Source: Candidatus Aminicenantales bacterium
Lineage (GTDB): Bacteria; Acidobacteriota; Aminicenantia; Aminicenantales; UBA8522
NCBI GenBank assembly: GCA_049287565.1
Contig: JBAQGA010000239.1
Coordinates: 1,522-65,521, forward strand
DNA length: 64,000 bases
Reading direction: 5' to 3'
Part shown: positions 19,682-35,582 of the stretch, in pieces
Position numbering within the stretch: the first letter of the stretch is position 1
Layout of the letters: each line of letters opens with the position of its first letter
Position numbers and translations under genes: made by a program
Notes under the pieces: model-generated
The model's database searches: none
What the model was told of the DNA's origin: nothing
What the model saw: only the letters and a program-made list of their open reading frames with translations

Positions 19682-20977
19682 ATGGCCTTATTTCAGAAAA
19701 AGAAAAGAACGCGGACCTGCATCATCGGCCTGGACGGAGTCCCCTACTCTCTCGTCCTCGAGCTGGCCGACCGGGGGATTATGCCGTCGTTGGCCGGACT
19801 CCTCAAGAGCGGCCACCTGCACAGGATGAAGGCCAGCCTCCCCGAGATCTCGGCCGTGTCCTGGACGGATTTCATGACCGGTGTGGATTCCGGCTCCCAC
19901 GGCATCTTCGGGTTCAGCGACCTCAAGCCCGGCTCCTACGGGATGCGTTTCCCCAATTTTTCCGACGTCAAGCGGGAGACCATCTGGGACATCCTGGGGA
20001 AGCAGGGACGGAAATCGATCATCATCAACCAGCCCTCGACCTATCCGGCCCGTCCCCTTAACGGCGTGCTGATTGCGGGGTTCGTCGCCCTCGACCTCGC
20101 CAAAGCCGTCTTCCCCCTGTCACAGAAAACAGCGCTGGAGCGGCTGGGCTACCGGATCGATATCGATACCATGAAGTCCCGGGAAGACCACGCCTTCCTC
20201 TGGCAGGAGCTCCAGACGACCCTGGACGGCCGGGAGAAGGCGCTGGACCACTTCTGGAAAGAGGACTGGGATTATTTCGAGTTCGTCATCACCGGGACCG
20301 ACAGGCTCCATCATTTTCTCTGGAACGCCTATGCGGATGAAAGCCATTCCTTTCATGCCAAATTCCTGGATTATTACCGCCGGGTCGACGGGATCATCGG
20401 CCGGATCGTCCGCTCCTTCCGCAGCTTGAGGGGAAGCGACGGCGGCCTCCATCTCCTTTCCGATCACGGCTTCTGTCAGATCGAGCAGGAGGTCTATCTC
20501 AACGCCTGGCTCGAGGAGAAAGGTTATCTCCGCTTCAGCGGCGAGACGCCCGGCGAACTCGGAGACATCGCCGCCGGCAGCGTCGCCTTCGCCCTGGACC
20601 CGAACCGGATCTATCTTCACCTCGTGGATCGTTTTCCAAAAGGCGCCGTCACTCCGGCCGACCGGCCGGCGCTGAAAGAAAGAATCTCCCGGGAACTCAA
20701 GGAGCTGACCTTTGAGGGTCGTCCGGTCATCCGCCGCGTCTTCGATGCGGAGAAGACCTATTCCGGTCCGTTTGTCCCCTCCGGGCCCGACCTCCTCGTC
20801 CTGGCCGAACCCGGTTTCGACCTCAAAGGGTCGATCAAGAAGAAAGATGTTTTCGGCCGGACCAACCTGGAAGGCATGCATACCTGGGACGACGCCTTCT
20901 TCTGGGCTGACCGGAAGGTTGGAGACGACCTGAGGATCAGTCAGCTGTCCGCCCACATCCTGAGCCATTTCTCATGA
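19682..20977 (+). CDS. Alkaline-phosphatase superfamily, type I phosphodiesterase/nucleotide pyrophosphatase (NPP) family protein, cytoplasmic paralog
   Basis: Shares IIGLDG, a Thr-nucleophile region (SAVSWTDFMTGVDSGSHGIFGF), LLSDHGF and a C-terminal GMHTWDD metal-ligand motif with the two downstream paralogs. No signal peptide. 431 aa. Confidence 0.7.
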   Translation: MALFQKKKRTRTCIIGLDGVPYSLVLELADRGIMPSLAGLLKSGHLHRMKASLPEISAVSWTDFMTGVDSGSHGIFGFSDLKPGSYGMRFPNFSDVKRETIWDILGKQGRKSIIINQPSTYPARPLNGVLIAGFVALDLAKAVFPLSQKTALERLGYRIDIDTMKSREDHAFLWQELQTTLDGREKALDHFWKEDWDYFEFVITGTDRLHHFLWNAYADESHSFHAKFLDYYRRVDGIIGRIVRSFRSLRGSDGGLHLLSDHGFCQIEQEVYLNAWLEEKGYLRFSGETPGELGDIAAGSVAFALDPNRIYLHLVDRFPKGAVTPADRPALKERISRELKELTFEGRPVIRRVFDAEKTYSGPFVPSGPDLLVLAEPGFDLKGSIKKKDVFGRTNLEGMHTWDDAFFWADRKVGDDLRISQLSAHILSHFS

Positions 20978-23118
20978 ACAAAAACTTTCCAACACGAACA
21001 CTTCTCATCGTTATAGGACTCCTTTTTTGTTGCGGCCTGCCCGCCCAGGCATACATAGGTCCGGGCGCCGGGTTCGCTTTTCTCTCCTCGTTCCTCGTCT
21101 TTTTCCTCACCTTTTTCCTGGCCGTTTTCTCTTTTCTTTCCTGGCCTTTTCGCCTGCTCATCCGGATGATCAAGGGCCGAAGAACACTCAAGGGTGCGCT
21201 CGTCGACAAGGTGGTCATCATCGGACTGGACGGGCTCGAACCCACGCTGGCCGAAAAATTCATGAGCGAGGGCAAGCTCCCCCATCTCTCCAGGCTTAAG
21301 AAAGAAGGCACCTACGCGCGCCTCCAGACAACGACCCCGGCCATCTCGCCGGTGGCCTGGTCGTCTTTCATGACCGGCTCCGAGCCGTCCAAACACAACA
21401 TCTTCGATTTTCTCAGCCGTGACCCGCGGACCTACCTCCCCTCCCTGTCGTCCGCCTATATCGGCCGTCCGAAAAGAGTCCTTTCCCTAGGGAAGTACTC
21501 CATTCCTCTGTCCAAGCCCGAGATCCGGGGGATGAGGAAGAGCGTACCCTTCTGGAAGACCCTGGGAGATGCCGGCATCTTCAGCACCGTCCTCCGCGTG
21601 CCGATCACCTTTCCGCCGGAAAAATTCTCCGGCCACCTCCTCTCCGGGATGTGCGCGCCGGACCTCAAGGGGAGCCAGGGAACGTTCGCTTTTTACACCA
21701 CCGACTCGGCCAAGATAACGAAGCGGGAGGGCGGAGTGGCCATTCCTGTCGAGGTCCGGGATGACCGGGTGGAAACCTATATTTCCGGGCCGGAAAATTC
21801 ACTCATCAAGAGCGCTCCGGAGATCCGCATCCCCCTGAGGATCGAGATCCGCCGGGAAAAACGCGAGGTCAGAGTCCACGTTTCCGGCCAACGATTCGAC
21901 CTCCGGGCCGGCGAGTTCTCTCCCTGGACCCGGATCGTCTTCAAGCCGGGGCTGGGGATGAAGGTCAAAGCCGTTGCCCGCTTCTATGTCTCCTCGCTCG
22001 ACCCTCACTTCGAGATGTACATGACCCCCTTGAACATCGATCCGGAGAAACCGGCCCTGCCCATCTCTCATCCTTTTATCTATTCCGTCTATCTCAGCAA
22101 GCTCCTGGGAAGTTTCATCACCCTCGGCGAAGCCAACGATACCTGGGCCCTGAACGAGGGCGCGCTCAAAGAGGCTCCCTTCCTCGATCTCACCTATTCC
22201 AACCACAGGGAATGGGAAGCGATGCTTTTCAACGCCCTGGCCAAGACGAAAAGAGGAACCGTTATCTGCGTTTTCGAGACCACCGACAGCATCCAACACA
22301 TGTTCTGGAGGTATCTGGACAAGGCCCATCCGGCCCTCCGGACGACGTCACCGGAGATGAGCTCCCAGGTCATCGAGGACCTCTACACAAAGATGGATGA
22401 CCTGATCGGCCGGGTCAGGGCCAAGCTCGACTCCCGGAGCGCCCTCATCGTCATGTCGGACCACGGCTTCAAGTCCTTCCGCCGGGGCGTCAACCTCAAC
22501 TCCTGGCTCTATCTCAACGGCTATCTGAGTCTCAAAGACGGGAAGACCGCAAGTGAAGAATGGTTCAAGGACGTGGATTGGGAGAAAACCAGAGCCTATG
22601 CCCTGGGGCTGGGAGGGCTGTACATCAACCAAAAGGGCCGGGAAGCAAAAGGCATCGTCGGGGCCGGAGAAGAAACGCGGGCCCTCAAGGCGGAACTGAT
22701 CACCAAACTCAACCGGCTTCGGGACGAGGCCGCCGGCGACGTCGCCATCACCGAGGCTTATGACCGTGACCGGATCTATGCAGGACCGTACGTCCATAAC
22801 GCGCCCGACCTCGTCATCGGCTACAACCAGGGGTTTCGGGCCTCCTGGGATTCGGTGACGGGAAAGGTCAACGGCACCATCTTCGAAGACAATATCAAGG
22901 CCTGGAGCGGCGACCACTGCATCGATCCCCGGCACGTCCCCGGCGTTTTCTACTTCAGCCGGAAGACGGCTTCCAAGACGCCTTCGATCATGGATGTGGC
23001 GCCGACCGTTCTGACCCTCTTCGGGCTTCCGGCGCCGGCCCACATGGACGGCCGTCCGCTCCTGGATTCGGAGGCGCCGCCTGAAACACCGCCAAGAAAT
23101 AAAGGAGATAAAAAATGA
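20974..23118 (+). CDS. NPP/alkaline-phosphatase family protein, membrane-anchored paralog with an inserted beta-rich domain
   Basis: N-terminal TM segments. VIIGLDGLEP, TTPAISPVAWSSFMTGSEPSKHNIF, VMSDHGFKSF and WSGDHCIDP motifs. An insert of about 250 aa relative to paralog 1. ATGA overlap with the upstream gene. Confidence 0.7.
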   Translation: MNKNFPTRTLLIVIGLLFCCGLPAQAYIGPGAGFAFLSSFLVFFLTFFLAVFSFLSWPFRLLIRMIKGRRTLKGALVDKVVIIGLDGLEPTLAEKFMSEGKLPHLSRLKKEGTYARLQTTTPAISPVAWSSFMTGSEPSKHNIFDFLSRDPRTYLPSLSSAYIGRPKRVLSLGKYSIPLSKPEIRGMRKSVPFWKTLGDAGIFSTVLRVPITFPPEKFSGHLLSGMCAPDLKGSQGTFAFYTTDSAKITKREGGVAIPVEVRDDRVETYISGPENSLIKSAPEIRIPLRIEIRREKREVRVHVSGQRFDLRAGEFSPWTRIVFKPGLGMKVKAVARFYVSSLDPHFEMYMTPLNIDPEKPALPISHPFIYSVYLSKLLGSFITLGEANDTWALNEGALKEAPFLDLTYSNHREWEAMLFNALAKTKRGTVICVFETTDSIQHMFWRYLDKAHPALRTTSPEMSSQVIEDLYTKMDDLIGRVRAKLDSRSALIVMSDHGFKSFRRGVNLNSWLYLNGYLSLKDGKTASEEWFKDVDWEKTRAYALGLGGLYINQKGREAKGIVGAGEETRALKAELITKLNRLRDEAAGDVAITEAYDRDRIYAGPYVHNAPDLVIGYNQGFRASWDSVTGKVNGTIFEDNIKAWSGDHCIDPRHVPGVFYFSRKTASKTPSIMDVAPTVLTLFGLPAPAHMDGRPLLDSEAPPETPPRNKGDKK

Positions 23119-25100
23119 GCAGCATGAATAGACGGGAATTCCTCAAACAAGGCCTGGCCGCCTCTTCCTTGCTGGCTGCCGGTAGCGGCCTCGCGCCTCT
23201 TCTTCGCGGCTCCGGCAGGAGCGCGACCAGGGCCAAGGTGCTGGTCCTCGGGTTCGACGGCCTGGACCCGAAGCTCCTCTATCGCTGGCTGGATGAAGGA
23301 AAACTGCCGTCCTTCGCCCGGCTCATCGCAGCCGGAGGTTTCCGGCCGCTCGGCACAAGCATTCCACCGCAAAGTCCAGTGGCCTGGTCGAATTTCATCA
23401 CCGGCACCGACCCGGGAGGTCACGGCATCTTTGACTTCATCCACCGCGACCCGAACACCTACATCCCTATTTTCTCCGCCACCCTCTCAACCGAGGCCAA
23501 GAAAGCACTCAAGATCGGCGACCTTGTGCTTCCCTTGAGCGGCGGCGAGGTCAAGAACCTGATCCAGGCGAAGGCGTTCTGGCAGGTCCTGGAAGAGCAC
23601 GATATCCCGGCCACCGTTTTCAAGATGCCTTCGAACTATCCACCCGTTCCGACCAAACAGCGGACCCTTTCCGGCATGGGTACGCCCGACCTCAAAGGAA
23701 GCTACGGAATCTCCTGTTTCTATACGACCGATCCCGATATGCCCAAGGGAGAGCTTTCTGGCGGGAGGGTTTATGAGGTCTACGTTATCGGGAACCGGGT
23801 CGAGGCCAAGCTTCCCGGACCGGTCAACACTTTCAAGAAAGACCGGCCGGAAGCCCTCATTGACTTTCAGGTCTTCGTCGATCCCGTCCATCCGATGGCC
23901 AAAGTCGTCCTGCCGGACCAGGAATTTATCATCAAGGAAAAGGAATGGAGCGGCTGGAAGAGGGTCAATTTCGGCCTCATCCCGACTCAGAGTGTAAGCG
24001 GGATCTGCATGTTCTACCTCAAGGAGGTCCGTCCCCATTTCAAGCTCTATGTCAGCCCCATCAATATCGACCCGGCTCATCCGGCCCAGCCGATCTCGAC
24101 TCCGGGAAGCTACGCCCAGGAGCTGGAGCGGGTCTTCGGGCCCTTCTTCACCAAGGGCCTTCCGGCCGACACCTCGGCCCTCGACAACAATGTCCTCGAC
24201 GAGGAAGAGTTCCTGGAGCAGGACGACATGATCCTGCGGGAGCGCGAGCAGATGTTCGACTACGAGTTCAAGCGTTTTGAATCCGGACTTCTTTTCTATT
24301 ACGTTTCGAGTACCGACCAACGTCAGCACATGTTCTGGCGTTTGCTGGACGAGATGCACCCGGAATACGACCCCCGGCTCGCCGCTCGCTACGGGCGGAC
24401 CATCGAAAACATCTACGTCGAAGCAGACCGCTTCCTCGGGCGGGTTCTGCCGAAGATCGACAAGGAAACTGTGCTCCTGGTCATGTCCGACCACGGATTC
24501 AATCCCTTCCGCCGGGCCTTCAACCTCAACACTTGGCTTTTCGAGAACGGATACCACAGGCTGCGCAACCCCTGGAAACAGGGGGAAGGGAGTTTCTTTG
24601 ATAACACCGATTGGTCGAGGACGAAAGCCTATGGGATCGGCCTCAACGGCCTCTATATCAACCAGAGGAGCCGGGAGAGAGAGGGAATCGTCAATCCCGG
24701 AGCCGACAGCGCGAATCTGATCCGGGAGATCGCCCAGAAGCTCGAACAGACGGTCGATCCCAAGACGGGTGAGCGGGCCATCCTCCGGGCTTTCATCTCC
24801 AAGGACGTCTATCACGGTTCCCAGATCGAACACGCCCCCGACATCATCTGCGGCTTCAACAAGGGCTATCGCATATCCTGGGATTCGCCCCTCGGCAAGT
24901 TCCCCAAAGATATCTTTTTAGATAACGGCGAGAAGTGGAGCGGCGACCATATGGGCGCTCCCGAGGTCCTCCCCGGGATCCTGGCCGCCAACCGCCCCAT
25001 CCGGGCCGACGCTCCGGCCCTCTACGACTTGACGGCCACGATCCTCGACTTATTCGGCCTCCCCAAGACGAAAGAGATGATCGGAAAACCCGTTTTTTGA
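23115..25100 (+). CDS. NPP/alkaline-phosphatase family protein, Tat-exported paralog
   Basis: Twin-arginine signal MNRREFLKQGLAASSLLAAGSGLA. LVLGFDGLDP, SIPPQSPVAWSNFITGTDPGGHGIF, VMSDHGFNPF and WSGDHMGAP motifs. ATGA overlap with the upstream gene. Confidence 0.7.
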   Translation: MSSMNRREFLKQGLAASSLLAAGSGLAPLLRGSGRSATRAKVLVLGFDGLDPKLLYRWLDEGKLPSFARLIAAGGFRPLGTSIPPQSPVAWSNFITGTDPGGHGIFDFIHRDPNTYIPIFSATLSTEAKKALKIGDLVLPLSGGEVKNLIQAKAFWQVLEEHDIPATVFKMPSNYPPVPTKQRTLSGMGTPDLKGSYGISCFYTTDPDMPKGELSGGRVYEVYVIGNRVEAKLPGPVNTFKKDRPEALIDFQVFVDPVHPMAKVVLPDQEFIIKEKEWSGWKRVNFGLIPTQSVSGICMFYLKEVRPHFKLYVSPINIDPAHPAQPISTPGSYAQELERVFGPFFTKGLPADTSALDNNVLDEEEFLEQDDMILREREQMFDYEFKRFESGLLFYYVSSTDQRQHMFWRLLDEMHPEYDPRLAARYGRTIENIYVEADRFLGRVLPKIDKETVLLVMSDHGFNPFRRAFNLNTWLFENGYHRLRNPWKQGEGSFFDNTDWSRTKAYGIGLNGLYINQRSREREGIVNPGADSANLIREIAQKLEQTVDPKTGERAILRAFISKDVYHGSQIEHAPDIICGFNKGYRISWDSPLGKFPKDIFLDNGEKWSGDHMGAPEVLPGILAANRPIRADAPALYDLTATILDLFGLPKTKEMIGKPVF

Positions 25101-27343: not shown

Positions 27344-30300
27344 CTAGAATCCCGGCCAGAAGCTGAACTGGAAATACCAGCCCTTGTCCGGCCGGTCAAA
27401 TGGCTTGACATAGTTGACACCCACAACCAAATAGCCGAAGACGTTCACTCGCAGGCCGATACCGGCGCTGGAGATGGGCTTGCGTGTTCCTCCCAGGATC
27501 GTAGGCTTGTTGTTCTGGCCCTCTGAATCCGCGTACCAGGCGACACCCCAATCGTAAAAGAGGATCATGTCGATGGGAAAAGCCCCGTAATACCCTTTCC
27601 CTAGTCCCAGGACTCCCAGCAAAGGAAAGCGGAGCTCGGCGTTGGCGACCAGCATCTTAGAGCCGAAGAGTCTTCCCTGGTCAAACCCCTCTCCTCCGGG
27701 ATATTCGCTGCTGCCGTAAGAATAGTAATCGTAACCGCGGACGAAGCTTTCATAACCGATGTAAAGCGGGTACATCCGTTCGTCCTCGGCGTCCTTGCCG
27801 TAGCGGCCATAATGAAAGGCCCGGAAAGCGAGCGTGAACGGCCGGACGGGCATGAAATAACGCCGATAATCGGCCATGATCGTGTACATATTGAAGGAAC
27901 CAAAGGTGGGCGTCGCCTCAAGAATATAACTCTGACCCAGGATCGGCCCCGTTGCGCCGAAGAGCGAGCTGTCATAGACCAGGGCGAAGCTCGTGTAGGC
28001 ATAATGGATGCTCGGCGCCGAAGGAAGCTTCTCGACATCGCGATAGACCAGGCTTCCATCGTACAATGAGTAGGCCTGGGTGATGATCTCCGTATCGAAG
28101 TCGATATACTGATAGCCTGCGTACATTTCCACCCGCTGGACCTGATTGAATGGATAGGCCAAATAACCGCCGATCTGATAGTTGAACTGCCAGGCCAGGT
28201 ATTGCTCTTCGATATAGAGCTGATTGATCTCGTCGTAGGAAATGCCGTATCCCCCATACACATAGGGAATGCGGCCGACCACCGCTCCCCAATTGAGGCG
28301 GTGCCGCGAGTTCTGATAGCTGAGGATCCCGGTCAGGTCCTTCAACCGGCTCGAGGACTGGACGATGGTCGCGAGGGAATGGTATCCGAGCATGTCGGTC
28401 CAGTAGAGCCCGATTCCCCCGCCCGCATATGTCCCGAAGCGGTCGATGCCGACACCGATCTGCGGCGGGGCGACGTAGTCGAGGGTGAGCTTGGGCTTGT
28501 AAGAGGACTCGGGGAATTCGACCTGCTCCGGCAGACCGAAAAGCGGGTTTCTCAGGAGCCCGAGCAGGGCGCCGCCGGGCTGCTCGCGCGGCGGCAAGAC
28601 AGAGAGCAGCCTTCCTCCGAAGGTGGCAATATCGGGACTCCCCTGCAGGGCTTCATCCCGGTCGATCAGATAAATGGTGTAATAGCCGTCGTCATAACCG
28701 GAATAGGCCAGCCGTCCCGAGTCATGAGCAACCGAGATGGCCGGGCTCAGGTCGGTGATCCCGCTGACTCCCGTGTAGATGTTGGTCACTTGAAAGATCT
28801 TTTTAGAGGCCAGATCGATACGGTAGATGTCGGTTTTGCCGCTCTGATCGGAGATGAAGATCAGGCTGCGGTTGTCCTTCGTCCACTGGGGATTGGCGTT
28901 CTTGGCGGCCGAAAAAGCGGGGATGCGCTCGATCTTTCCGGAGACAGGATCGATCAGGGCCAACTCGTAGTCGCCCATGCTCAGCAAGGTCAGGTCGGTG
29001 GTGAAACGGTCGGTGACGAAAGCAATGCGTCGGCCGTCGGGGGACCAGCTCGGCTGGAGGTCGGCGAAGAAATCGTCGGTGAACGGCTTCAGATCCTTCG
29101 TTTCCAGGTCATAGAGAAAAAGGTCCGTCTTCCCGCCGGTCAGAGCTGAGAAGGCGATAAATCTCCCGTCCGGCGACCAGGCCGGGCTGAAGATCTCGTC
29201 CAGGCTCTTGAACTCGATCTCCTCGACGATCTTTCCTTTGTCCAGGTCGTAAAAGCTGAGGATGGGCTCTCCCTTCGAGATGGCGCCGAAGACAAAAGTC
29301 TTTCCCTGGGGGTCCCAGGCGCCGGCCGAGCGGATGAACTGGAGACTTTCGAACTCGGGGTCGACGGCGGTCTGGGTGATCTTGTCCATGACCTTGCCTG
29401 TCCGGGCGTCGGCCAGGTACAGGTCGATGGAAAAGAGGTCGCGAGTGGACAGAAACATGATGTGTCGGCCGTCGGGGCTGATAACGGGCGAGACGTTGTA
29501 AGGATTTTTTTCCTCCCCTTTAAGAAGAACCCGGCTGTTCGGGTCGGTAAGCTGCGTTCCTTCCAGGACCGGTTTGAAGGCTTTTTCATAAGCCTCATGC
29601 CAGTCTTTGGTCAGCTGTTCATAGGAGACCCCCAGGAGTTTGGTGACCACGGCTTCCATATCGCCCCCCCGTCCGATGCTCTTCATCAGACGGGAAATCG
29701 TTTCGTCTCCCCATCGTCCCGTCATATAAGCCAAGAGGGCTTGCCCGTAACGATAGGGGAAATATTTATAAGGGTTATTCAGTTTCTTCAGGGCAGGAAG
29801 AAAATTGCGGCGGCTGGCATCTCTCATCCACATGGCCGTATGCGGGTCGACCGATCCGATCGACAGGTATTCCGCCATTCCTTCGATGAACCACAGGGGA
29901 ACCTGGGCCAGGCCGAGACCCATCCCGCCCCCGCTTCCAGGCCCACCGGACGAGCTCATGTCGTATTGAAAGGCATGGACGAGCTCGTGGCCGATGACGT
30001 GATCGGTCTCGGCCGGTGACGTCCCGATGGGAAGGATGATCCGGCGTTTGAACGACTCCGTGACACCGCCCGTCCCTTCGCCGATCATTCCGGTCAGGGC
30101 AGTTGTCTGCTGGAAATGCGGGCTGCTGGCGTACAGGATCAGGGGCTGCCGTCCTTTGAGCTCATGGTTGAGCATTCTGGAGTAACGGGCATACCACCGT
30201 TCCGCCATGCGGGCCGATTCCTCGGCCACGCCCCTGAACTCCTGATAAAAATAAACGTCGAAATGCTTCGTCTTGATGATCTGGAAATCGAATTTCTGGT

Positions 30301-30409
30301 ATTGGACCTTGTTCCGGCCGAAATACTGGGCCTCGAGCGGCTGGCTGAGAAGCGACAAGGCCAAGGCAGCTATAAGAATCATAACGCCAAACTTTATTGT
30401 TTTGGACAT
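27344..30409 (-). CDS. Large outer-membrane protein: N-terminal HEXXH peptidase-like (MA clan) domain + TolB-like beta-propeller + C-terminal Omp85/D15 beta-barrel
   Basis: Signal peptide MSKTIKFGVMILIAALALSLLSQPLEA after a GAGGAGGG ribosome-binding site. HELVHAFQYD zinc-binding motif. PD40/TolB repeats (PAWSPDGRFIAF, PSWSPDGRRIAF). C-terminal Omp85 surface-antigen barrel (ANAELRFPL...) ending in an aromatic residue (FWPGF). Confidence 0.7.
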   Translation of the reverse strand: MSKTIKFGVMILIAALALSLLSQPLEAQYFGRNKVQYQKFDFQIIKTKHFDVYFYQEFRGVAEESARMAERWYARYSRMLNHELKGRQPLILYASSPHFQQTTALTGMIGEGTGGVTESFKRRIILPIGTSPAETDHVIGHELVHAFQYDMSSSGGPGSGGGMGLGLAQVPLWFIEGMAEYLSIGSVDPHTAMWMRDASRRNFLPALKKLNNPYKYFPYRYGQALLAYMTGRWGDETISRLMKSIGRGGDMEAVVTKLLGVSYEQLTKDWHEAYEKAFKPVLEGTQLTDPNSRVLLKGEEKNPYNVSPVISPDGRHIMFLSTRDLFSIDLYLADARTGKVMDKITQTAVDPEFESLQFIRSAGAWDPQGKTFVFGAISKGEPILSFYDLDKGKIVEEIEFKSLDEIFSPAWSPDGRFIAFSALTGGKTDLFLYDLETKDLKPFTDDFFADLQPSWSPDGRRIAFVTDRFTTDLTLLSMGDYELALIDPVSGKIERIPAFSAAKNANPQWTKDNRSLIFISDQSGKTDIYRIDLASKKIFQVTNIYTGVSGITDLSPAISVAHDSGRLAYSGYDDGYYTIYLIDRDEALQGSPDIATFGGRLLSVLPPREQPGGALLGLLRNPLFGLPEQVEFPESSYKPKLTLDYVAPPQIGVGIDRFGTYAGGGIGLYWTDMLGYHSLATIVQSSSRLKDLTGILSYQNSRHRLNWGAVVGRIPYVYGGYGISYDEINQLYIEEQYLAWQFNYQIGGYLAYPFNQVQRVEMYAGYQYIDFDTEIITQAYSLYDGSLVYRDVEKLPSAPSIHYAYTSFALVYDSSLFGATGPILGQSYILEATPTFGSFNMYTIMADYRRYFMPVRPFTLAFRAFHYGRYGKDAEDERMYPLYIGYESFVRGYDYYSYGSSEYPGGEGFDQGRLFGSKMLVANAELRFPLLGVLGLGKGYYGAFPIDMILFYDWGVAWYADSEGQNNKPTILGGTRKPISSAGIGLRVNVFGYLVVGVNYVKPFDRPDKGWYFQFSFWPGF

Positions 30410-30744
30410 TGTTCCCTCCTCGGTCTCAGGCATCGAAAACACCTATATCCAGATCAGACCTAATCACTATTATCCTTATAAATTTTATCAAATTAATATA
30501 ATATTGGCAATTCAAGAACCCAACGGGCCGTCTGGATGGCCATGATTCACTCTCATGTCTTCGACATTACTATTATACTATCCATGCCTTTTAGAGCAAA
30601 TTCCATGCCAATTTCTTTGCTTTCTATCTCAGCGCGATGCTCCCTGGAACCAGAGACCGCCGGCTATTTTGAGCCTCGGGAATGTCTCTCGCCGAGGACA
30701 GATGTCATCCAATTGGGTGCAGGCCTCGACGCGGGACTCTTGGA

Positions 30745-31314
30745 TCAATCTTTTGGGCGGTTGAACCAAACGATCTCGCTCAAGCTCTTCCGGCTCTTTT
30801 CCCGCGGTTTTTTTTCGTAATACCCCAAGGCCATCAAGCAGACGATCTTGTACCGGCGGGGAATGCGGAAGAACTTCCGGGTTCTCCGCCCGTTGAACCA
30901 GCCGATCCAGCAGGTCCCCAGCCCGAGCTCTTCGGCCTGGAGTGAGAGGTGTCCGCCGGCGATGCCCACGTCGATGAGGTAGAAAGGGACGTTCTGGAGA
31001 TAGTTCCCGATGCGGTTGGCGAGAAGATCCAGGCGGGCCAGGATGAGGATAAGCACCGGCGCCTTGGCCGCGAACCGGGAGAATTGATAGATTCCCGAGA
31101 AGGCGGCGGCCGAGAAACGATCCTTGATGTCCGGGTCATCGATGACCAGAAACCGCCAGGGCTGAACGTTCTCAGCCGAAGGGGCCAGCCGGGCGGCTTC
31201 TAGACAGACGAGCACCTTTTCCCTTTCCACCGGCCTGTCGAGATACCGCCGAACGCTGCGACGGCCCCGCACCAGTTTCTGAAACGGCGTGCGCTCTATC
31301 GTCATCGGCATCAC
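30745..31314 (-). CDS. Nitroreductase family protein
   Basis: RRSVRRY...LAPSAENVQPWRF motif of FMN-dependent nitroreductases. 189 aa. Confidence 0.8.
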   Translation of the reverse strand: MMPMTIERTPFQKLVRGRRSVRRYLDRPVEREKVLVCLEAARLAPSAENVQPWRFLVIDDPDIKDRFSAAAFSGIYQFSRFAAKAPVLILILARLDLLANRIGNYLQNVPFYLIDVGIAGGHLSLQAEELGLGTCWIGWFNGRRTRKFFRIPRRYKIVCLMALGYYEKKPREKSRKSLSEIVWFNRPKD

Positions 31315-31974: not shown

Positions 31975-32973
31975 GTGAAAAAAATCGCCGCCAGTGCTCT
32001 TGCTTTCGTCTTTGTTCTGGCAGGTCTGATGTCCTGCAGCAAGGCAACGGCTCCCAAGGCCGGCTCGGCCAAAGCCACGGATATGCTTTCCCTCCTCCCC
32101 GTTGATTCAAAGGGAGCGGTCGTTGTCGATGTCCATCGGATCATGCAGAACGAATTTGTCCAGAAATCGATCGCCGAGAACGAGGACAAAGCCAAGTACG
32201 ACGAATTTGTCCAGACCACGGGGATTGATCCGCAGCAGGACATTTTCTTTTTCGTCGGTGCCATGATGGGGGATATCGGACAAAAGGAGCCGGACGGGGC
32301 TGGCCTGGTCAACCTGAGATACGATAAGGATAAGGTCCTGGCTTTAGTCCAGAAAGAGGGAGGCGAATTGGGCCAGGAAGAATACAGCGGCCTGACGGTC
32401 TATCGGACCGCTGCCGGCGAAGACAAGAAACCCATGAGCTTCGTCTTCATGGATGAGTCCAACATCCTCCTGGGCACGGATGCTGCGGTCAGGAAGGTCA
32501 TCGATGTCTACCAGAAAAAGGCCGACAATATCTGGAAGAACGAGAATATGTCCGCCCTGCTCAAGGGAATGAATACCGCCGCCATGGTCTGGGGAGGGTT
32601 CGCCATCCCCCCGGATGCCATGAAGCAGGCCTCTTCCCAGAACCCGATGCTGAGCGCTTTTTCCGACATCCGCTCTATCGTCCTCTCCTTCGACTACAAG
32701 GATAAGAACGTCCTCGCCGAGATCAAGGCGCTGAGCCCGGACGCGGCCAAGAACAAGCAGATGGGCGACGCCCTAAACGGGTTCAAGGCTCTGGGAGCCG
32801 GAGCCGCAGCCCAGGAGCCCCTCTGGGGCGAGCTTCTGAACAAGATCGAGATCAACTCTGCCGCCGACCACGTCAAGATCGCCGCCACCCTGCCAGAGGA
32901 GTTGATCAGGAGTCTGGGCGAGAAAATGAAGCCGAAGAAGCCGGAAGCCGAGCTGGAAGAGAACGAGAACTAG
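31975..32973 (+). CDS. Lipoprotein of unknown function
   Basis: Signal peptide with lipobox LAGLMSC. Soluble 300-aa domain with an acidic C-terminus. Convergent with the ABC-2 transporter genes. Confidence 0.55.
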   Translation: MKKIAASALAFVFVLAGLMSCSKATAPKAGSAKATDMLSLLPVDSKGAVVVDVHRIMQNEFVQKSIAENEDKAKYDEFVQTTGIDPQQDIFFFVGAMMGDIGQKEPDGAGLVNLRYDKDKVLALVQKEGGELGQEEYSGLTVYRTAAGEDKKPMSFVFMDESNILLGTDAAVRKVIDVYQKKADNIWKNENMSALLKGMNTAAMVWGGFAIPPDAMKQASSQNPMLSAFSDIRSIVLSFDYKDKNVLAEIKALSPDAAKNKQMGDALNGFKALGAGAAAQEPLWGELLNKIEINSAADHVKIAATLPEELIRSLGEKMKPKKPEAELEENEN

Positions 32974-33782
32974 TCGTCGAGAATATATTCCTTCTTCGTA
33001 AAGAAAAGGCAGGCCAGCGCCAGGAGCGCGGCCGTGATGAGGAATAGCATCAGGAGGGCGAGCCCCGGCTTGGTCGGCTCCAAGTGGAACGTCAGGATGG
33101 AAAAGCGTCCCGACGAGGTCGCCGGCAGGAACGATTTCAGGTAGTGGGCGATGGCCAGCCGCTGGGTCGAGCCCGGAAAATATTGGATGACGTTCTCCCA
33201 GCCGAAACAGAACAGCAGTCCGAAGAAGATCGACCGCTTCAAAAAACTCCCGAAAAAGGTGAACAGAGCCCCGTAAGCCATTACTCCCAGGATAAGAACT
33301 CCCAGATACCGGCCGAGGATTCGGTATATCGAGAGATCAAGGAGGCGGTCGAGGTTGAGGACAAAGAAGGAAAACACCAGGCCCAGGGTGACCATCCCGA
33401 TCATCACGATCGTGTAGGCGGCATACTTGCCCAGCACGACGGCCGCCTTGGAGACGGGCCGGGTGACGAGATAGGGCAAGGTCTTCCCCTCCACTTCTTC
33501 CGAACAGACCGAAGTCCCGTAGAATAGCGCCAGGATAAGAATGATCAGCTGAAGGTAAAAGAGCATGATCAGGTTGTTGAAGAGATAGCCGTTCCCGCTT
33601 CCCGGTTTGCCGGAAAAGATCTGGTTGAACTTGATGACCAACGAGACGGCAACCGGCAGGAAGCTGAACAGGAAGAAAAACCGGGTCCGCCGGGCCTTCC
33701 GTCCCTGCGGAAAAAAGACGGCAAAGACCCGCCCTGCGGAACGCAGCAACGAAAAAAGATTGGCGGCTGGGCTGGCGGTCAT
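32970..33782 (-). CDS. ABC-2 family transporter permease
   Basis: Six hydrophobic segments. Typical ABC-2 exporter permease size (270 aa). 2-nt gap from the upstream ATPase gene. Confidence 0.7.
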   Translation of the reverse strand: MTASPAANLFSLLRSAGRVFAVFFPQGRKARRTRFFFLFSFLPVAVSLVIKFNQIFSGKPGSGNGYLFNNLIMLFYLQLIILILALFYGTSVCSEEVEGKTLPYLVTRPVSKAAVVLGKYAAYTIVMIGMVTLGLVFSFFVLNLDRLLDLSIYRILGRYLGVLILGVMAYGALFTFFGSFLKRSIFFGLLFCFGWENVIQYFPGSTQRLAIAHYLKSFLPATSSGRFSILTFHLEPTKPGLALLMLFLITAALLALACLFFTKKEYILDD

Positions 33783-33783
33783 G

Positions 33784-34710
33784 TTATTTCCCCACGAGAT
33801 AATCGAAGACGGCCTGGAGGTTGTCGTCGGGCGAGGTGATCTCCTCGACTTCCATCTTGGTCTTGACGAGCAGGCTCAGGAGCCGGGCAAAAAATTTATC
33901 CCGGTTGGTGGTCTCGACCAGGAGGGATCTCGCGTCCGGCCCGAAATACACTTTCAAGACGTTATCCTCGCCCAGGAACTGAGCGGCCAGGCCCCGCGGG
34001 TCGGCGCACTTGATGGCCACCATGTGGGGATGCGTCTCGATGAGGTCCCGGATATAGTGGATGTCCCCCCGGGCAAAGATTTTTCCCTGATGGATCAGGA
34101 TGATGTTTCTGGTGAGGGCCTCGATCTCGGGGAGGACGTGGCTGGAAACGATCACCGTCTTGCCCTCCTCCTTGTATGTCTTGATCAGGCGAATGAGTTT
34201 CCGTTTCCCCAGCGGGTCCAGGCCGCTCATCGGTTCGTCCAGGATGATGATCTCCGGATCATGGGCGATGGCCTGGGCGAACTTGAGCCTCTGGCGCATT
34301 CCCCGGCTGTAGGCCCGGACCAGCCGGTCGCGATCGGTCGAGAGCTCGACGATTTCGAGCGTTTTCTCCGCCCGCGAACGGACTTCGGCCGGCGCGAATC
34401 CGTGGAGCCTGAGAAGGCTGGTCAGGAAAACCCAGCCCGTCATGTCCTCGTAGAAGGAGTCGTGTTCGGGGCAAAACCCGATGCGGGAAAAAAGGGACGG
34501 GTTGTTCTGGACCTTCTGGCCGAGGATCCGGACGGTGCCGATGCTGGGCCGGATCTGTCCGGTGAGGAGCTTGAGAAAGGTCGATTTGCCGGCGCCGTTC
34601 GGCCCTAGGAGGCCGCTGATCCCGGGCTCGACCTCGATGGTGACATCGCTCAGCCCGAGGACGTTCCCGTACCATTTGGAAAGGCTGGAGGTCTGGATCA
34701 CGGCCGTCAT
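33784..34710 (-). CDS. ABC transporter ATP-binding protein
   Basis: Walker A GPNGAGKST. ABC signature YSRGMRQRL. Walker B ILDEP. Confidence 0.9.
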   Translation of the reverse strand: MTAVIQTSSLSKWYGNVLGLSDVTIEVEPGISGLLGPNGAGKSTFLKLLTGQIRPSIGTVRILGQKVQNNPSLFSRIGFCPEHDSFYEDMTGWVFLTSLLRLHGFAPAEVRSRAEKTLEIVELSTDRDRLVRAYSRGMRQRLKFAQAIAHDPEIIILDEPMSGLDPLGKRKLIRLIKTYKEEGKTVIVSSHVLPEIEALTRNIILIHQGKIFARGDIHYIRDLIETHPHMVAIKCADPRGLAAQFLGEDNVLKVYFGPDARSLLVETTNRDKFFARLLSLLVKTKMEVEEITSPDDNLQAVFDYLVGK

Positions 34711-35582
34711 TTGGCGACCTCCACACCCCGGACTTTCTTGTTCAGAACAGCGGCTGCCGCCACTCCGACGGCCAGGAGGATGAGGAACGACCAGTACCAG
34801 GGAACTGCGTACTCTGGCTTGAGTTTAAAGAACCAGGCTGCGACCTGCTGCAAGTTCGTTCTTATGGAAAGCAGGGCATAGGCTGGATCCTTCTTGATGT
34901 TCTCGAAGAAGAACCTGAAGAGGATCTCGGAGAAGAAATAGATCGCAAAAATCAGGATGGAGACATATCTCCTGTTCTTGCTCAGCGAGGACAAGAGCAA
35001 CGTATAGGAGCAGAAAAATCCGGTGACGAACAAGGAATAGCCGATGACCGAGAGCGGCAGCCAGGGATAGGTCATAAGGAGATGGAAGTTCCCGGCGAAA
35101 AGGAGCTTGAAGAGGATGAAGACCAGCCCGGGGACGAGCGTAATCAGGAGGAGGAAAAAGACAATGACGTTCGCCTTGCCGAGGAGGTAATCGCTCTTTC
35201 GGAGCGGACGGGCGAAATAGAGCTGGAGGGAATTGTGCTTAAGGTCGTCGGCGATCAATCCCGCCCCGCTGACCAACAGGATCATCACCATCATGAAGAG
35301 CATGCCGTTCCAGCTCAGGTAAACTTTAAAAAAGGCCGGATTGACCTCGAGGACCGCGCTTTCGCCGTTGATCATATAGCGGAAGTCCTCGATCCGCTCT
35401 GAAACATAGATGCCGACGAGAAACACAAACGCAAGCCCGAGAGCGCTGAACAGGATGAACTTGAAATACTTCCTCTTGAAGGCCAGCCGGATACCCAGCC
35501 AGGTGATCGGCCACCAGGGGAACCGCTTCTCTTTCAACTCCCCGTCCCAGTGCATGTAGCCTTTCTCTCGGATGGTCATCAA
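34707..35582 (-). CDS. ABC-2 family transporter permease (second cassette)
   Basis: Polytopic membrane protein (291 aa). Overlaps neighbours by 4 nt on both sides. Confidence 0.7.
   Translation of the reverse strand: MMTIREKGYMHWDGELKEKRFPWWPITWLGIRLAFKRKYFKFILFSALGLAFVFLVGIYVSERIEDFRYMINGESAVLEVNPAFFKVYLSWNGMLFMMVMILLVSGAGLIADDLKHNSLQLYFARPLRKSDYLLGKANVIVFFLLLITLVPGLVFILFKLLFAGNFHLLMTYPWLPLSVIGYSLFVTGFFCSYTLLLSSLSKNRRYVSILIFAIYFFSEILFRFFFENIKKDPAYALLSIRTNLQQVAAWFFKLKPEYAVPWYWSFLILLAVGVAAAAVLNKKVRGVEVAK

Follow-up and report, generated by a model that had tools for sequence, protein, structure and literature searches.

The Omp85/TpsB superfamily includes a subfamily termed WD40-Omp85, or 'WD40-like' (Heinz and Lithgow, 2014, Front Microbiol 5:370, PMC4104836). 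Its members were matched with Phyre2 to a TolB-like propeller (2w8b/2ivz) and to a BamA/TamA-like barrel (4k3b/4c00) with no POTRA, and the authors explicitly admit POTRA-less subfamilies (PMC4104836). In their Table S3, about 100 members have fold hits to aminopeptidases and collagenases, the N-terminal fold hits in the column 'best aminopeptidase hit' being 1z5h, 4kxd, 3qnf, 4ar1 and 4ar9; the main text deals with the propeller only and leaves an M9-type catalytic signature unmentioned (PMC4104836). A 2024 paper refers to a subfamily with 'WD40 and peptidase domains', WD40-Omp85 proteins were still termed uncharacterised in papers of that year, and our literature search found no published experiments on any member. 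PlpD and the patatin-like Omp85 proteins (formerly 'type Vd') likewise carry an enzyme domain N-terminal to an Omp85 barrel. PlpD is a lipase with one POTRA that forms homodimers, whereas the protein described here combines a metallopeptidase and a propeller with no POTRA, and thus does not show the type Vd order of passenger, POTRA and 16-strand barrel.

The gene and its relatives

We analyzed a window of 64,000 nt (the whole stretch of DNA under study) from an Aminicenantes-type genome, an origin that apparently distinguishes the present copy from those of Heinz and Lithgow. The gene encodes the same three parts as their proteins: a peptidase-fold domain, a TolB-like propeller and a BamA/TamA-like barrel, the Omp85 barrel following TolB-like PD40 repeats without POTRA. 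By this architecture, matched to the published description, the protein is a member of the WD40-Omp85 subfamily, and the arrangement is not new, as it was catalogued in 2014. The features are listed below by their positions in the window.

27344..30409, minus strand: complete gene for the 1021-aa peptidase-propeller-Omp85 protein, ATG at 30409 and stop at 27344-27346 (translation, full-length homologues)
30595..30610, minus strand: candidate sigma-54-type -24/-12 element TGGCATGGAATTTGCT, the sole strict match within the 64-kb window
30482..30510, minus strand: sigma-70-like promoter candidate, TTGCCA-17-TAAAAT with extended -10 TG (10/12 consensus matches only)
30414..30421, minus strand: Shine-Dalgarno GAGGAGGG, GGAGG core at 30415-30419, conserved in the orthologous locus L001
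30329..30409, minus strand: predicted Sec signal peptide, aa 1-27 (predicted cleavage LEA|Q, model helix 3-22)
30290..30328, minus strand: conserved mature N-terminus, aa 28-40 (QYFGRNKVQY...), from sequence comparison
29555..30289, minus strand: gluzincin (clan MA) peptidase domain, collagenase (M9)-like, aa ~41-285 (Pfam, NCBIfam, Foldseek, conservation)
30056..30082, minus strand: GEGTGGVTE, aa 110-118, with double-Gly G114-G115, putative edge strand and Glu118 (conservation, M9 likeness)
29975..29989, minus strand: HEXXH zinc-binding/catalytic motif, H141-E142-L-V-H145, then Q148 (sequence, conservation)
29870..29884, minus strand: predicted gluzincin helix E176-G-M-A-E180 (model helix 172-184, M9 rule)
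28661..29554, minus strand: six-bladed PD40/TolB-like beta-propeller, aa ~286-583 (Pfam, TolB model, PDB, Foldseek, strand pattern)
28463..28660, minus strand: non-POTRA linker of about 65 aa, aa 584-649 (DSSP of the model, Pfam)
27347..28462, minus strand: Omp85-superfamily beta-barrel, aa 650-1021, first confident strand at 659 (model, Foldseek, PF01103 in orthologues, NCBIfam)
27731..27742, minus strand: Omp85 L6 signature (V/I)RG(Y/F), V890-R-G-Y893 (R891, G892 and Y893 in 78/78 relatives, V/I at 890)
27545..27559, minus strand: Omp85 strand-13 signature FxDxG, F951-Y-D953-W-G955 (F951 and D953 in 78/78 relatives, G955 in 77/78)

The longest open reading frame in the ORF list, 27344..30442 on the minus strand, has a GTG start and would give 1032 aa. 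The ATG at 30409, with GGAGG 5 nt before it, gives the 1021-aa product and is matched by the N-termini of 89 homologues in the alignment. Residues 1-27 (MSKTIKFGVMILIAALALSLLSQPLEA, then Q) look like a Sec signal peptide and form the least conserved segment of the protein. Sec export is strongly predicted, in agreement with an earlier reading of the DNA from its letters (the sequence-only reading), which had proposed a secreted protein of 1021 aa. As the signal peptide contains no lipobox Cys, the protein is not a lipoprotein. Behind the predicted cleavage site, aa 28-40 do not vary among 90 close relatives; across phyla their conservation is about 90%, and their pLDDT is low.

The gene is real and not a chance ORF, since database searches scored more than 8000 homologues and relatives are encoded in at least 593 species genomes. 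A survey of the phyletic distribution had been suggested along with the sequence-only reading, and full-length relatives were recovered across several phyla, those of 44-53% identity in taxa resembling the ones of Heinz and Lithgow. Among the best 80 loci, almost every one is full length; contig edges truncate three, and the closest locus is 86% identical. We take the host groups common to these relatives and the Heinz and Lithgow accessions to be Gemmatimonadota, Ignavibacteria and Cytophagia-type Bacteroidota; an Aminicenantes-type lineage was, by our own assignment, not recognised among those accessions. A second homologue search returned no accession from their list. No conserved gene neighbour was found across the relatives, which gives no pointer to a substrate or pathway.

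The collagenase-like peptidase domain

Conservation was assessed in 78 full-length relatives from Aminicenantes, Gemmatimonadota, Acidobacteriota, Ignavibacteria, Bacteroidota and Eisenbacteria, and no other domain is as well conserved in this sample as the peptidase. On the protein, the Pfam family BSP (PF04450) scored 32.3 bits, above its cutoff of 23.8, and Peptidase_MA_2 came just below its own (29.4 vs 32.4). These results uphold the N-terminal HEXXH zinc-peptidase-like domain of clan MA that had been proposed from the letters. Peptidase_M9 gave a weak match (23.1 vs a gathering score of 26) and the NCBIfam model flagellinolysin reached an E-value of 1.7e-9, but a score of only 37.6 vs a cutoff of 205. 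The HEXXH motif at aa 141-145 lies within TDHVIGHELVHAFQYD (aa 135-150); H141, E142, H145 and Q148 are each present in 78/78 full-length relatives, and HEXXH is kept in 91/91 long cluster representatives.

In M9 peptidases, the third-ligand Glu lies 28-30 aa after HEXXH and is followed by a Glu at +4, a second-shell Gln stands one turn past HEXXH and the second Glu one turn past the gluzincin Glu, and a double-Gly with an edge strand ending in a Ca-binding Glu precedes HEXXH by about 29 aa (Eckhard 2013, PMC3711286). Shared with ColG, ColH and ColT are HEXXH with its Gln at +3, a third-ligand Glu at a distance of 28-31 aa and the Glu four residues on from it; the upstream double-Gly and edge strand match approximately. 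A third zinc ligand, which the sequence-only reading had left to a structure prediction, can be proposed: E176, on model helix 172-184 and 31 aa after H145, is the predicted ligand, and E180, four residues further, the predicted His-stabilising Glu, both in 78/78 relatives. Judged from sequence, aa 110-118 appear to resemble, approximately, the S1'/edge-strand/Ca-site motif of M9. There, E111, G114, G115 and T117 are found in 78/78 relatives and E118 in 77/78; G114-G115-V-T-E118 lies 26 aa before H141 in a loop of low pLDDT, and Glu118 comes 3 residues after the second Gly vs 4 in ColG/ColH, a spacing one residue shorter. Y219 is also conserved in all 78.

With the peptidase model, Foldseek returned ColG, ColH and ColT (TM 0.54-0.57) together with M1 and M61 enzymes, F3, ERAP1 and PepN being among the matches; for the isolated model, E-values lie at a weak 1e-3 to 1e-2 and pLDDT reaches only 73. 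These collagenases, F3, ERAP1 and PepN belong to the same structure families that Table S3 lists. The peptidase profile had zero matches among PDB sequences. The M9 collagenases are the best structural matches of the domain, with flagellinolysin weakly matched as well; in contrast to the clostridial collagenases, the protein has no activator, PKD or collagen-binding domains. Because the M9 active-site residues show no variation, or almost none (at least 77/78), in full-length relatives of several phyla, the enzyme is probably active.

Propeller, linker and outer-membrane barrel

The TolB-type PD40 propeller described by the sequence-only reading was recovered by several searches: four Pfam PD40 matches (E 2.9e-22), a TolB propeller model in an NCBIfam-type profile search (7.8e-34), TolB in the PDB (4.5e-22) and TolB in Foldseek (1e-11). 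Six-bladed PD40 propellers are shared with TolB, S9 and tricorn proteins, and S9 and tricorn enzymes likewise pair the propeller with a peptidase domain. Given this strong similarity, and the names that relatives bear in databases, the protein could be taken for a TolB paralogue, an S9 peptidase or a 'Tol biopolymer transport component', acting in Tol-Pal envelope maintenance or as a serine peptidase. We regard this as highly improbable, and the domain content contradicts it. The TolB equivalog TIGR02800 scored 117 bits vs a cutoff of 343, with its best stretch covering propeller profile positions 197-300 only, and the N-terminal domain of TolB is missing. The serine-peptidase domains of S9 and tricorn enzymes are missing too: no S9 catalytic-domain family was found in Pfam/NCBIfam, all S9-type matches fall inside the propeller (aa ~380-550), and the domain order is reversed, with the peptidase before the propeller. 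In addition, tol and pal genes are absent nearby.

The linker is the least conserved segment of the mature protein, apart from a near-invariant LPP at 605-607. DSSP finds a pair of short helices and a single short strand in it, the rest being mostly coil; pLDDT is 84-92 as far as residue ~640 and 61 for 641-650. Pfam gave no POTRA match and the modelled linker 584-649 contains no beta-alpha-alpha-beta-beta unit, so the view that propeller and peptidase replace the POTRA domains holds, with none hidden in the linker.

In the AlphaFold model (pLDDT 84, pTM 0.78), the C-terminal region has the canonical 11 strands (b1 659-671 to b11 858-870), a long L6 (871-917) and 5 further strands (b12-b16, 918-1019), and ends in ...FQFSFWPGF. 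DSSP adds a short strand, 650-656, ahead of b1, with pLDDT below 50. Foldseek matched the barrel to the BamA chains 9co0_A, 7tt4_A, 8pz2_A and 7ye4_A (probability 1.00, E about 1e-8). The motifs (V/I)RG(Y/F), at the L6 tip, and (F/G)xDxG, on strand 13, define Omp85 barrels, the FxDxG type standing for the BamA/TamA barrel with a closed extracellular face and GxDxG for the wide FhaC pore (Maier 2015, PMC4490367). In our model, FxDxG falls on strand 13, and it is the BamA/TamA version of the motif instead of FhaC's GxDxG; the 16-strand barrel, both motifs and the C-terminal aromatic residue are shared with BamA and TamA. In contrast to these proteins, our protein lacks POTRA and linked BAM/TAM partner genes, and its sequence is too dissimilar for an Omp85 match in Pfam from this one sequence or for a PDB profile match. 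The Omp85 family PF01103, on which the sequence-only reading had staked its 16-strand barrel ending in FSFWPGF, did not match this protein even at E<=1, nor the barrel alone at E<=0.01; the barrel profile had zero matches among PDB sequences and the NCBIfam model Omp85_fam gave 7.4e-5, far under its cutoff. This literal failure in Pfam is overturned by the structure, by the signature motifs and by the orthologues, as PF01103 matched 22/39 orthologous barrels (best E 5.9e-16). A 16-strand Omp85 barrel with a BamA/TamA-type 'lid lock', in the outer membrane, is thus strongly predicted from the model.

We infer that the N-terminal domains lie in the periplasm, because strand 1 of an Omp85 barrel begins on the periplasmic side and all N-terminal domains characterised so far in Omp85 proteins are, to our knowledge, periplasmic, including the lipase domain of PlpD. 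If strand 650-656 were truly transmembrane, these domains would lie outside the cell, which counts against the periplasmic placement. Surface display, in which the barrel would export peptidase and propeller in a type V-like manner for extracellular protein degradation and nutrition, is an unlikely alternative. It would fit hosts such as Aminicenantes and many others in the family, which are thought to use proteins or amino acids. Judging by accession prefix, entries of Table S3 such as those with D0M, Q2S and H1X accessions presumably are several paralogues per genome, which would suit a diversified substrate use, and the confidently modelled yet mostly coiled linker and the extra strand ahead of strand 1 point in the same direction. 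Display was also raised by Heinz and Lithgow for enzyme-Omp85 fusions, after the older PlpD model (PMC4104836), and collagenase-like peptidases are typically extracellular (Eckhard 2013, PMC3711286). However, the PlpD precedent has been overturned: the enzyme domain is periplasmic (Hanson 2024) and, as it stays there, serves as our template for topology. Moreover, the FxDxG lid lock goes with a closed extracellular face, unlike the GxDxG of the translocase FhaC (PMC4490367), no POTRA is present to handle a passenger, and the 16 strands agree exactly with the L6 and strand-13 landmarks.

The retained insertase-type lid lock and the BamA matches in Foldseek would also be expected of an outer-membrane-protein assembly factor, a BamA-BamB-like fusion with the propeller as scaffold, the barrel as insertase and the peptidase-like domain in a structural or minor editing role. 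We hold this to be quite unlikely. BamB is an eight-bladed PQQ-like propeller, whereas the propeller here is of the six-bladed PD40/TolB type. That the peptidase is the most conserved domain, with its catalytic residues all invariant, would not be expected of a module with a purely structural role, and linkage to BAM or TAM partner genes was not found, although the hypothesis has been published (Heinz and Lithgow, PMC4104836).

Expression and proposed mechanism

The sequence-only reading had pointed to an unusual AT-rich region upstream of the gene. The low GC is real (42-45% over roughly 30300-30750 vs about 57% in the surroundings), but the stretch is, as read from its letters, an ordinary promoter-bearing intergenic region. 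The -10 region of the sigma-70-like candidate is conserved in locus L001. The sigma-54-type element is found 5' of the orthologues in 4/76 loci (L001, L002, L004 and L008) vs 0.02 expected, and expression in the Aminicenantes lineage is probably regulated via a sigma-54-type promoter.

Taken together, we consider it somewhat probable that the protein is an outer-membrane-anchored zinc endopeptidase that faces the periplasm and cleaves extended polypeptides bound or filtered by its propeller. This agrees with the cautious functional proposal of the sequence-only reading, a proteolytic or quality-control module in the periplasm or at the surface. Peptidase and propeller would hang in the periplasm in place of POTRA domains ahead of the barrel. 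TolB binds peptide ligands by its propeller, and S9 and tricorn enzymes use theirs as filters for the active site; by analogy, the propeller here may bind or filter unstructured polypeptide segments. A collagenase-type cleft accepts substrates in extended conformation, and the cleft of this protein would cut the segments handed over by the propeller. The barrel would serve as membrane anchor, and unfolded outer-membrane proteins or peptides may in addition dock to it as substrates. A possible functional analogue is BepA, a BAM-associated periplasmic M48 metalloprotease that acts on stalled or misfolded outer-membrane proteins and is thus a zinc protease at the site of their assembly. Unlike our protein, BepA is soluble, belongs to an unrelated peptidase family and has a TPR domain and no barrel fusion.

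For the family as a whole, the WD40-Omp85 proteins might be self-contained 'proteolytic Omp85' machines for outer-membrane quality control, turnover or peptide processing, a tentative reading in which we place rather low confidence. At the membrane, the BamA-type barrel with its lateral seam would take hold of unfolded outer-membrane proteins or peptides as substrates and pass them to the fused, propeller-gated, collagenase-type endopeptidase. Such a device would need neither ATP nor POTRA domains and, in Aminicenantes, would be switched on by sigma-54.

Gene start and domain organisation

The gene lies at window positions 27344..30409 on the minus strand, within a single uninterrupted ORF (27344..30442). 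Its ATG at 30409 sits 5 nt 3' of a GGAGG, and gives the 1021-aa product proposed in the sequence-only reading; 89 homologues were observed to have N-termini that align with it. Residues 1-27 resemble a Sec signal peptide, with predicted cleavage between LEA and Q, in agreement with the secretion proposed there; no Cys was found in this segment, so that the protein is not a lipoprotein. The C-terminus reads ...FQFSFWPGF, with the FSFWPGF ending as reported. The first residues past the predicted cleavage site, aa 28-40 (window 30290-30328, minus strand, beginning QYFGRNKVQY), do not vary among 90 close relatives, keep about 90% conservation across phyla, and have low confidence in both the full-length and the aa 28-290 models. 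A pyroglutamate 'Q-rule' has been described for Bacteroidetes, of which the conserved +1 Gln of the mature protein is reminiscent. This segment could serve for docking, for autoinhibition or for the binding of a partner.

A full-length AlphaFold2 model was obtained from a 90-sequence alignment (pLDDT 84.3, pTM 0.78), and its domains are presented below.

Domains of the mature protein in the full-length model
aa 41-285: alpha/beta plus helical domain (peptidase)
aa 292-582: propeller strands, six PD40-type blades
aa 584-649: linker, mostly coil, confident to about residue 640
aa 659-870: barrel strands b1-b11
aa 871-917: loop L6, carrying VRGY
aa 918-1019: barrel strands b12-b16

The propeller was of TolB type, as first proposed: Pfam detected four PD40 repeats (E 2.9e-22), the NCBIfam TolB propeller model matched at 7.8e-34, far under its equivalog cutoff and with the propeller part as its best stretch, and TolB was the top match of the whole model in a Foldseek search against the PDB (E 1e-11). 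POTRA domains gave no Pfam match at E<=1 and no beta-alpha-alpha-beta-beta unit occurs in the modelled linker; on these results a hidden POTRA in the linker was rejected, in agreement with the proposal that none precedes the barrel. The linker is poorly conserved apart from a near-invariant LPP (aa 605-607, window 28589-28597, minus strand; 75-77 of the 78 full-length relatives in our alignment, across phyla) and G625 (73/78, across phyla); VLP stands at aa 604-606 (window 28592-28600, minus strand). Since these positions are conserved and pLDDT is 84-92 up to residue ~640 although the segment is mostly coil, the model suggests that the linker packs against another domain. Overall, Sec export and a six-bladed PD40 propeller with no POTRA domain are shown or strongly predicted.

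The N-terminal peptidase domain

The HEXXH motif (aa 141-145) is located inside TDHVIGHELVHAFQYD, and a WFIEG motif follows at aa 173. Over aa ~110-272, the Pfam family BSP (PF04450) matched above its cutoff (32.3 bits vs 23.8) and M9 matched weakly, and Peptidase_MA_2 remained just under its cutoff (29.4 vs 32.4 bits); BSP and Peptidase_MA_2 are the two family likenesses first put forward. The NCBIfam flagellinolysin model also matched (1.7e-9). Precomputed matches to two newer Pfam families, PF26549 and PF26550, are present on nearly all homologues. A separate structure model of aa 28-290 (pLDDT 73) was compared by Foldseek, with weak E-values of 1e-3 to 1e-2, and resembled the collagenase G, H and T peptidase domains (TM 0.54-0.57), a Grimontia collagenase, the M1 aminopeptidases IRAP, ERAP1, PepN, LTA4H and F3, and one M61 enzyme. 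Despite the weak E-values, these predicted likenesses give a uniform picture, that of the zinc-peptidase-like domain initially proposed. The clostridial collagenase catalytic core has been described (Eckhard et al., 2013; PMC3711286), and its elements are set beside those of the protein below.

Collagenase catalytic elements (PMC3711286) and their candidate counterparts in the protein
HEXXH: H141-E-L-V-H145
Gln one helical turn past HEXXH: Q148
Glu of the 'gluzincin helix', third zinc ligand, 28-30 residues further downstream: E176 (+31), on predicted helix 172-184
Second Glu, four residues past the ligand Glu: E180
Double-Gly ~29 residues upstream, followed by an edge strand with a Ca-binding Glu at its end: G114-G115-V-T-E118, 26 residues before H141

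Compared with ColG and ColH, the double-Gly is followed by its Glu one residue sooner, in a loop modelled with low confidence. H141, E142, H145, Q148, E176, E180, G114 and G115 are kept in 78/78 relatives, and E118 in 77/78, at 44-86% identity and from Aminicenantes, Gemmatimonadota, Vicinamibacterales and other Acidobacteriota, Ignavibacteria/Melioribacter, Bacteroidota and Eisenbacteria. E176 is the predicted third zinc ligand, and from motif and model the collagenase-type zinc site is strongly predicted to be intact. The peptidase is also the most conserved of the four mature domains, with a mean column conservation of 0.65 (propeller 0.62, barrel 0.58, linker 0.45) and 41 invariant columns out of 245.

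A profile search with the peptidase domain returned, at E<=1e-3, 4481 cluster representatives (50% identity) among 1.84 billion. Among the best 150 of these 4481, 91 have at least 900 aa, nearly all with the domain at the extreme N-terminus, and HEXXH is kept in all 91. The shorter matches (240-750 aa) look like truncated gene calls and were rejected as a sign of stand-alone peptidase architectures. In two representatives, P0136 (601 aa) and P0176 (384 aa), the peptidase runs straight into the final stretch of the barrel, the propeller being absent along with most of the barrel; these are probably assembly or gene-call artefacts, but could be real deletion variants.

The Omp85 barrel and the WD40-Omp85 subfamily

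The numbering of the barrel model is that of canonical Omp85 proteins, with L6 between strands 11 and 12 and FxDxG on strand 13. Foldseek against the PDB matched the model to BamA chains of BAM complexes (9co0_A, 7tt4_A, 8pz2_A, 7ye4_A) at E about 1e-8 and probability 1.00, over about 460 aligned columns. The single sequence had no match to an Omp85 Pfam model, even at E<=1, which is literally the outcome named in the sequence-only reading as a refutation; at family level the answer is clear, since barrel segments of 39 orthologues spread over several phyla gave 22 matches to PF01103 (best E 5.9e-16) and to no other model. NCBIfam gave a weak Omp85_fam match (aa 908-1017, 7.4e-5). The superfamily-wide motifs are (V/I)RG(Y/F) at the L6 tip and (F/G)xDxG on strand 13, FxDxG being typical of BamA and TamA, which are insertases, and GxDxG of FhaC, a translocase (Maier et al., 2015; PMC4490367). 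The protein carries VRGY (V890-R-G-Y893) and FYDWG at 951 (F951-x-D953-x-G955); all 78 full-length relatives keep the R, G, Y, F and D of these motifs, and 77 of the 78 keep the final G. From the family-level PF01103 matches and the two motifs, the barrel is assigned to the BamA/TamA type of Omp85 barrel, its insertase-type lid lock being strongly predicted, and the strand count, BamA matches and motifs substantiate the 16-strand Omp85/D15-type barrel of the first proposal. Profile searches against PDB sequences returned nothing at E<=10 with the peptidase or the barrel, and propeller proteins only with the full-length profile; the kinship with BamA and collagenases thus draws its support from structure, from motifs and from Pfam matches at family level. 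A short strand is modelled just before strand 1 (aa 650-656, window 28442-28462, minus strand; pLDDT below 50). If truly in the membrane, it would give a 17-strand barrel with flipped topology; alternatively, it might be paired at the lateral seam.

Omp85 proteins are at the core of outer-membrane biogenesis and, to our knowledge, those characterised all insert or translocate proteins. The Omp85/TpsB superfamily has been split into ten subfamilies, of which 'WD40-Omp85' ('WD40-like') has a TolB-like propeller instead of POTRA domains and was likened in the main text to a BamA-BamB fusion (Heinz and Lithgow, 2014; PMC4104836). Their Table S3 holds about 100 members with Phyre2 matches to BamA/TamA (4k3b, 4c00) and TolB (2w8b, 2ivz), and a 'best aminopeptidase hit' column with F3 (1z5h), aminopeptidase A (4kxd), ERAP1 (3qnf) and collagenases (4ar1, 4ar9), so that the three-part architecture was already tabulated (PMC4104836); C1A6X2, I7A1M2 and Q11Q40 are among their WD40-like UniProt entries. 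The protein adds a new member, found in an Aminicenantes-type genome, to this known and widespread subfamily. PF00149 is a calcineurin-like phosphoesterase domain. The separate 'Metallo' subfamily carries PF00149 (Heinz and Lithgow, 2014; PMC4104836) and is distinct from the protein described here. A 2024 paper on Leptospira Omp85 ascribes 'divergent WD40 and peptidase domains' to the WD40-like subfamily; Hanson et al. (2024) state that it is not characterised and call the POTRA-less subfamilies, an acknowledged blind spot of the field, 'intriguing targets'. We found no functional study of WD40-Omp85 in the literature searched, where later mentions are only passing.

A role as a BamA-BamB-like insertase, its peptidase-like domain being non-catalytic, would suit the lid lock and the published likening; this reading is weakened by the invariant catalytic residues and by a propeller of TolB type rather than BamB type, and we consider it improbable. 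Relatives are named in source databases 'BamA/TamA family outer membrane protein', 'peptidase S9', 'translocation protein TolB', 'basic secretory protein-like protein', 'Tol biopolymer transport system component' or PD40 domain-containing protein. That the protein is a TolB or an S9 peptidase, as some of these labels have it, is contradicted by its domain content and hardly credible. A second homologue search with a Melioribacter-like query returned inconsistently named MAG proteins only, with none of the accessions listed by Heinz and Lithgow.

Gene context and proposed activity

A relative was found in at least 593 genomes (pattern scan, one genome per species); the best 80 of these loci are nearly all full-length matches, three ending at contig ends, and the closest among the matches listed is from an Aminicenantes MAG (86% identity). 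Culturable hosts of a homologue include Gemmatimonas aurantiaca, Rhodothermus marinus, Cytophaga hutchinsonii, Myxococcus xanthus and Vibrio vulnificus. The window has no second copy. A nitroreductase gene lies about 335 nt upstream on the same strand, a convergent aminotransferase gene downstream, and phosphodiesterase and ABC-2 transporter genes farther off; this local context is uninformative. By neighbourhood clustering (three genes each side, 71 loci), no family occurred in more than 6 of the 71 loci, those being close relatives, and no operon partner or TamB-, SurA- or TonB-type link was detected among them: the gene stands alone. Elsewhere in the window, two tandem paralogous genes with a 4-nt overlap (20974-23118 and 23115-25100, plus strand; 714 and 661 aa) both encode type I phosphodiesterase / nucleotide pyrophosphatase domains (PF01663, E about 1e-33). 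At 31975-32973 (plus strand) and 32970-35582 (minus strand), a DUF3352 gene adjoins an ABC-2 type transporter cluster of two permease genes and one ATPase gene on the opposite strand, with no apparent tie to the protein.

The AT-rich stretch noticed upstream is real (GC 42-45% over roughly 30300-30750, vs about 57% nearby), but it is an ordinary intergenic promoter region. No Rfam match was found in this leader at E<=1. Two candidate promoter elements were recognised.

Candidate promoter elements
30510..30482, minus strand: sigma-70-like TTGCCA-17-TAAAAT with extended -10, from consensus match
30610..30595, minus strand: sigma-54-type -24/-12 element TGGCATGGAATTTGCT, about 186 nt upstream of the ATG

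The -10 region of the sigma-70-like candidate is kept in the closest relative. TGGCATGGAATTTGCT, the more notable of the two, has a textbook sigma-54 form and is the only strict match on either strand of the 64-kb window; the same element also lies upstream of the orthologue in four related loci (L001, L002, L004, L008), vs 0.02 expected. The sigma-54 activator signatures GAFTGA, ESELFG and Walker-A are absent from every frame of the window. At the level of sequence pattern, the element suggests that expression in this lineage is regulated and depends on RpoN.

In TolB, as well as in S9 and tricorn peptidases, PD40 propellers serve to bind or filter unstructured peptides. The propeller of the protein may do so with unstructured polypeptide segments, consistent with its TolB- and S9-type sequence matches. 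In a 16-strand Omp85 barrel, strand 1 starts from the periplasmic side. Since, in addition, the characterised Omp85 N-terminal domains are all periplasmic, including the PlpD enzyme domain, once thought to be secreted (Hanson et al., 2024), we infer a periplasmic position for the N-terminal domains. The FxDxG lid lock accompanies a barrel closed to the outside (Maier et al., 2015; PMC4490367), which argues against the passing of a 600-residue passenger; surface display for extracellular proteolysis is thus doubtful. A collagenase-type cleft takes substrates in extended conformation, from P5 to P3' (Eckhard et al., 2013; PMC3711286), and that of the protein would bind them likewise. Taken together, the periplasmic placement, closed barrel, extended-substrate cleft and peptide-binding propeller lead us to favour, as the probable function, an outer-membrane-anchored, periplasm-facing endopeptidase whose substrates would be peptides or unfolded polypeptides and whose barrel would serve as anchor and possibly also to dock substrates.

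In the literature searched, we did not find the M9-type signature with its strict conservation across phyla, the peptidase as the most conserved part, the BamA/TamA-type (FxDxG) lid lock of the barrel or the upstream sigma-54 element; these points sharpen a testable hypothesis, and the finding is not categorically new. The family is large and inconsistently annotated, so that a correct description would improve many annotations. Overall, the M9-like site, its conservation and the BamA/TamA-type barrel turn the function-unassigned WD40-Omp85 subfamily into a concrete hypothesis of an active endopeptidase.
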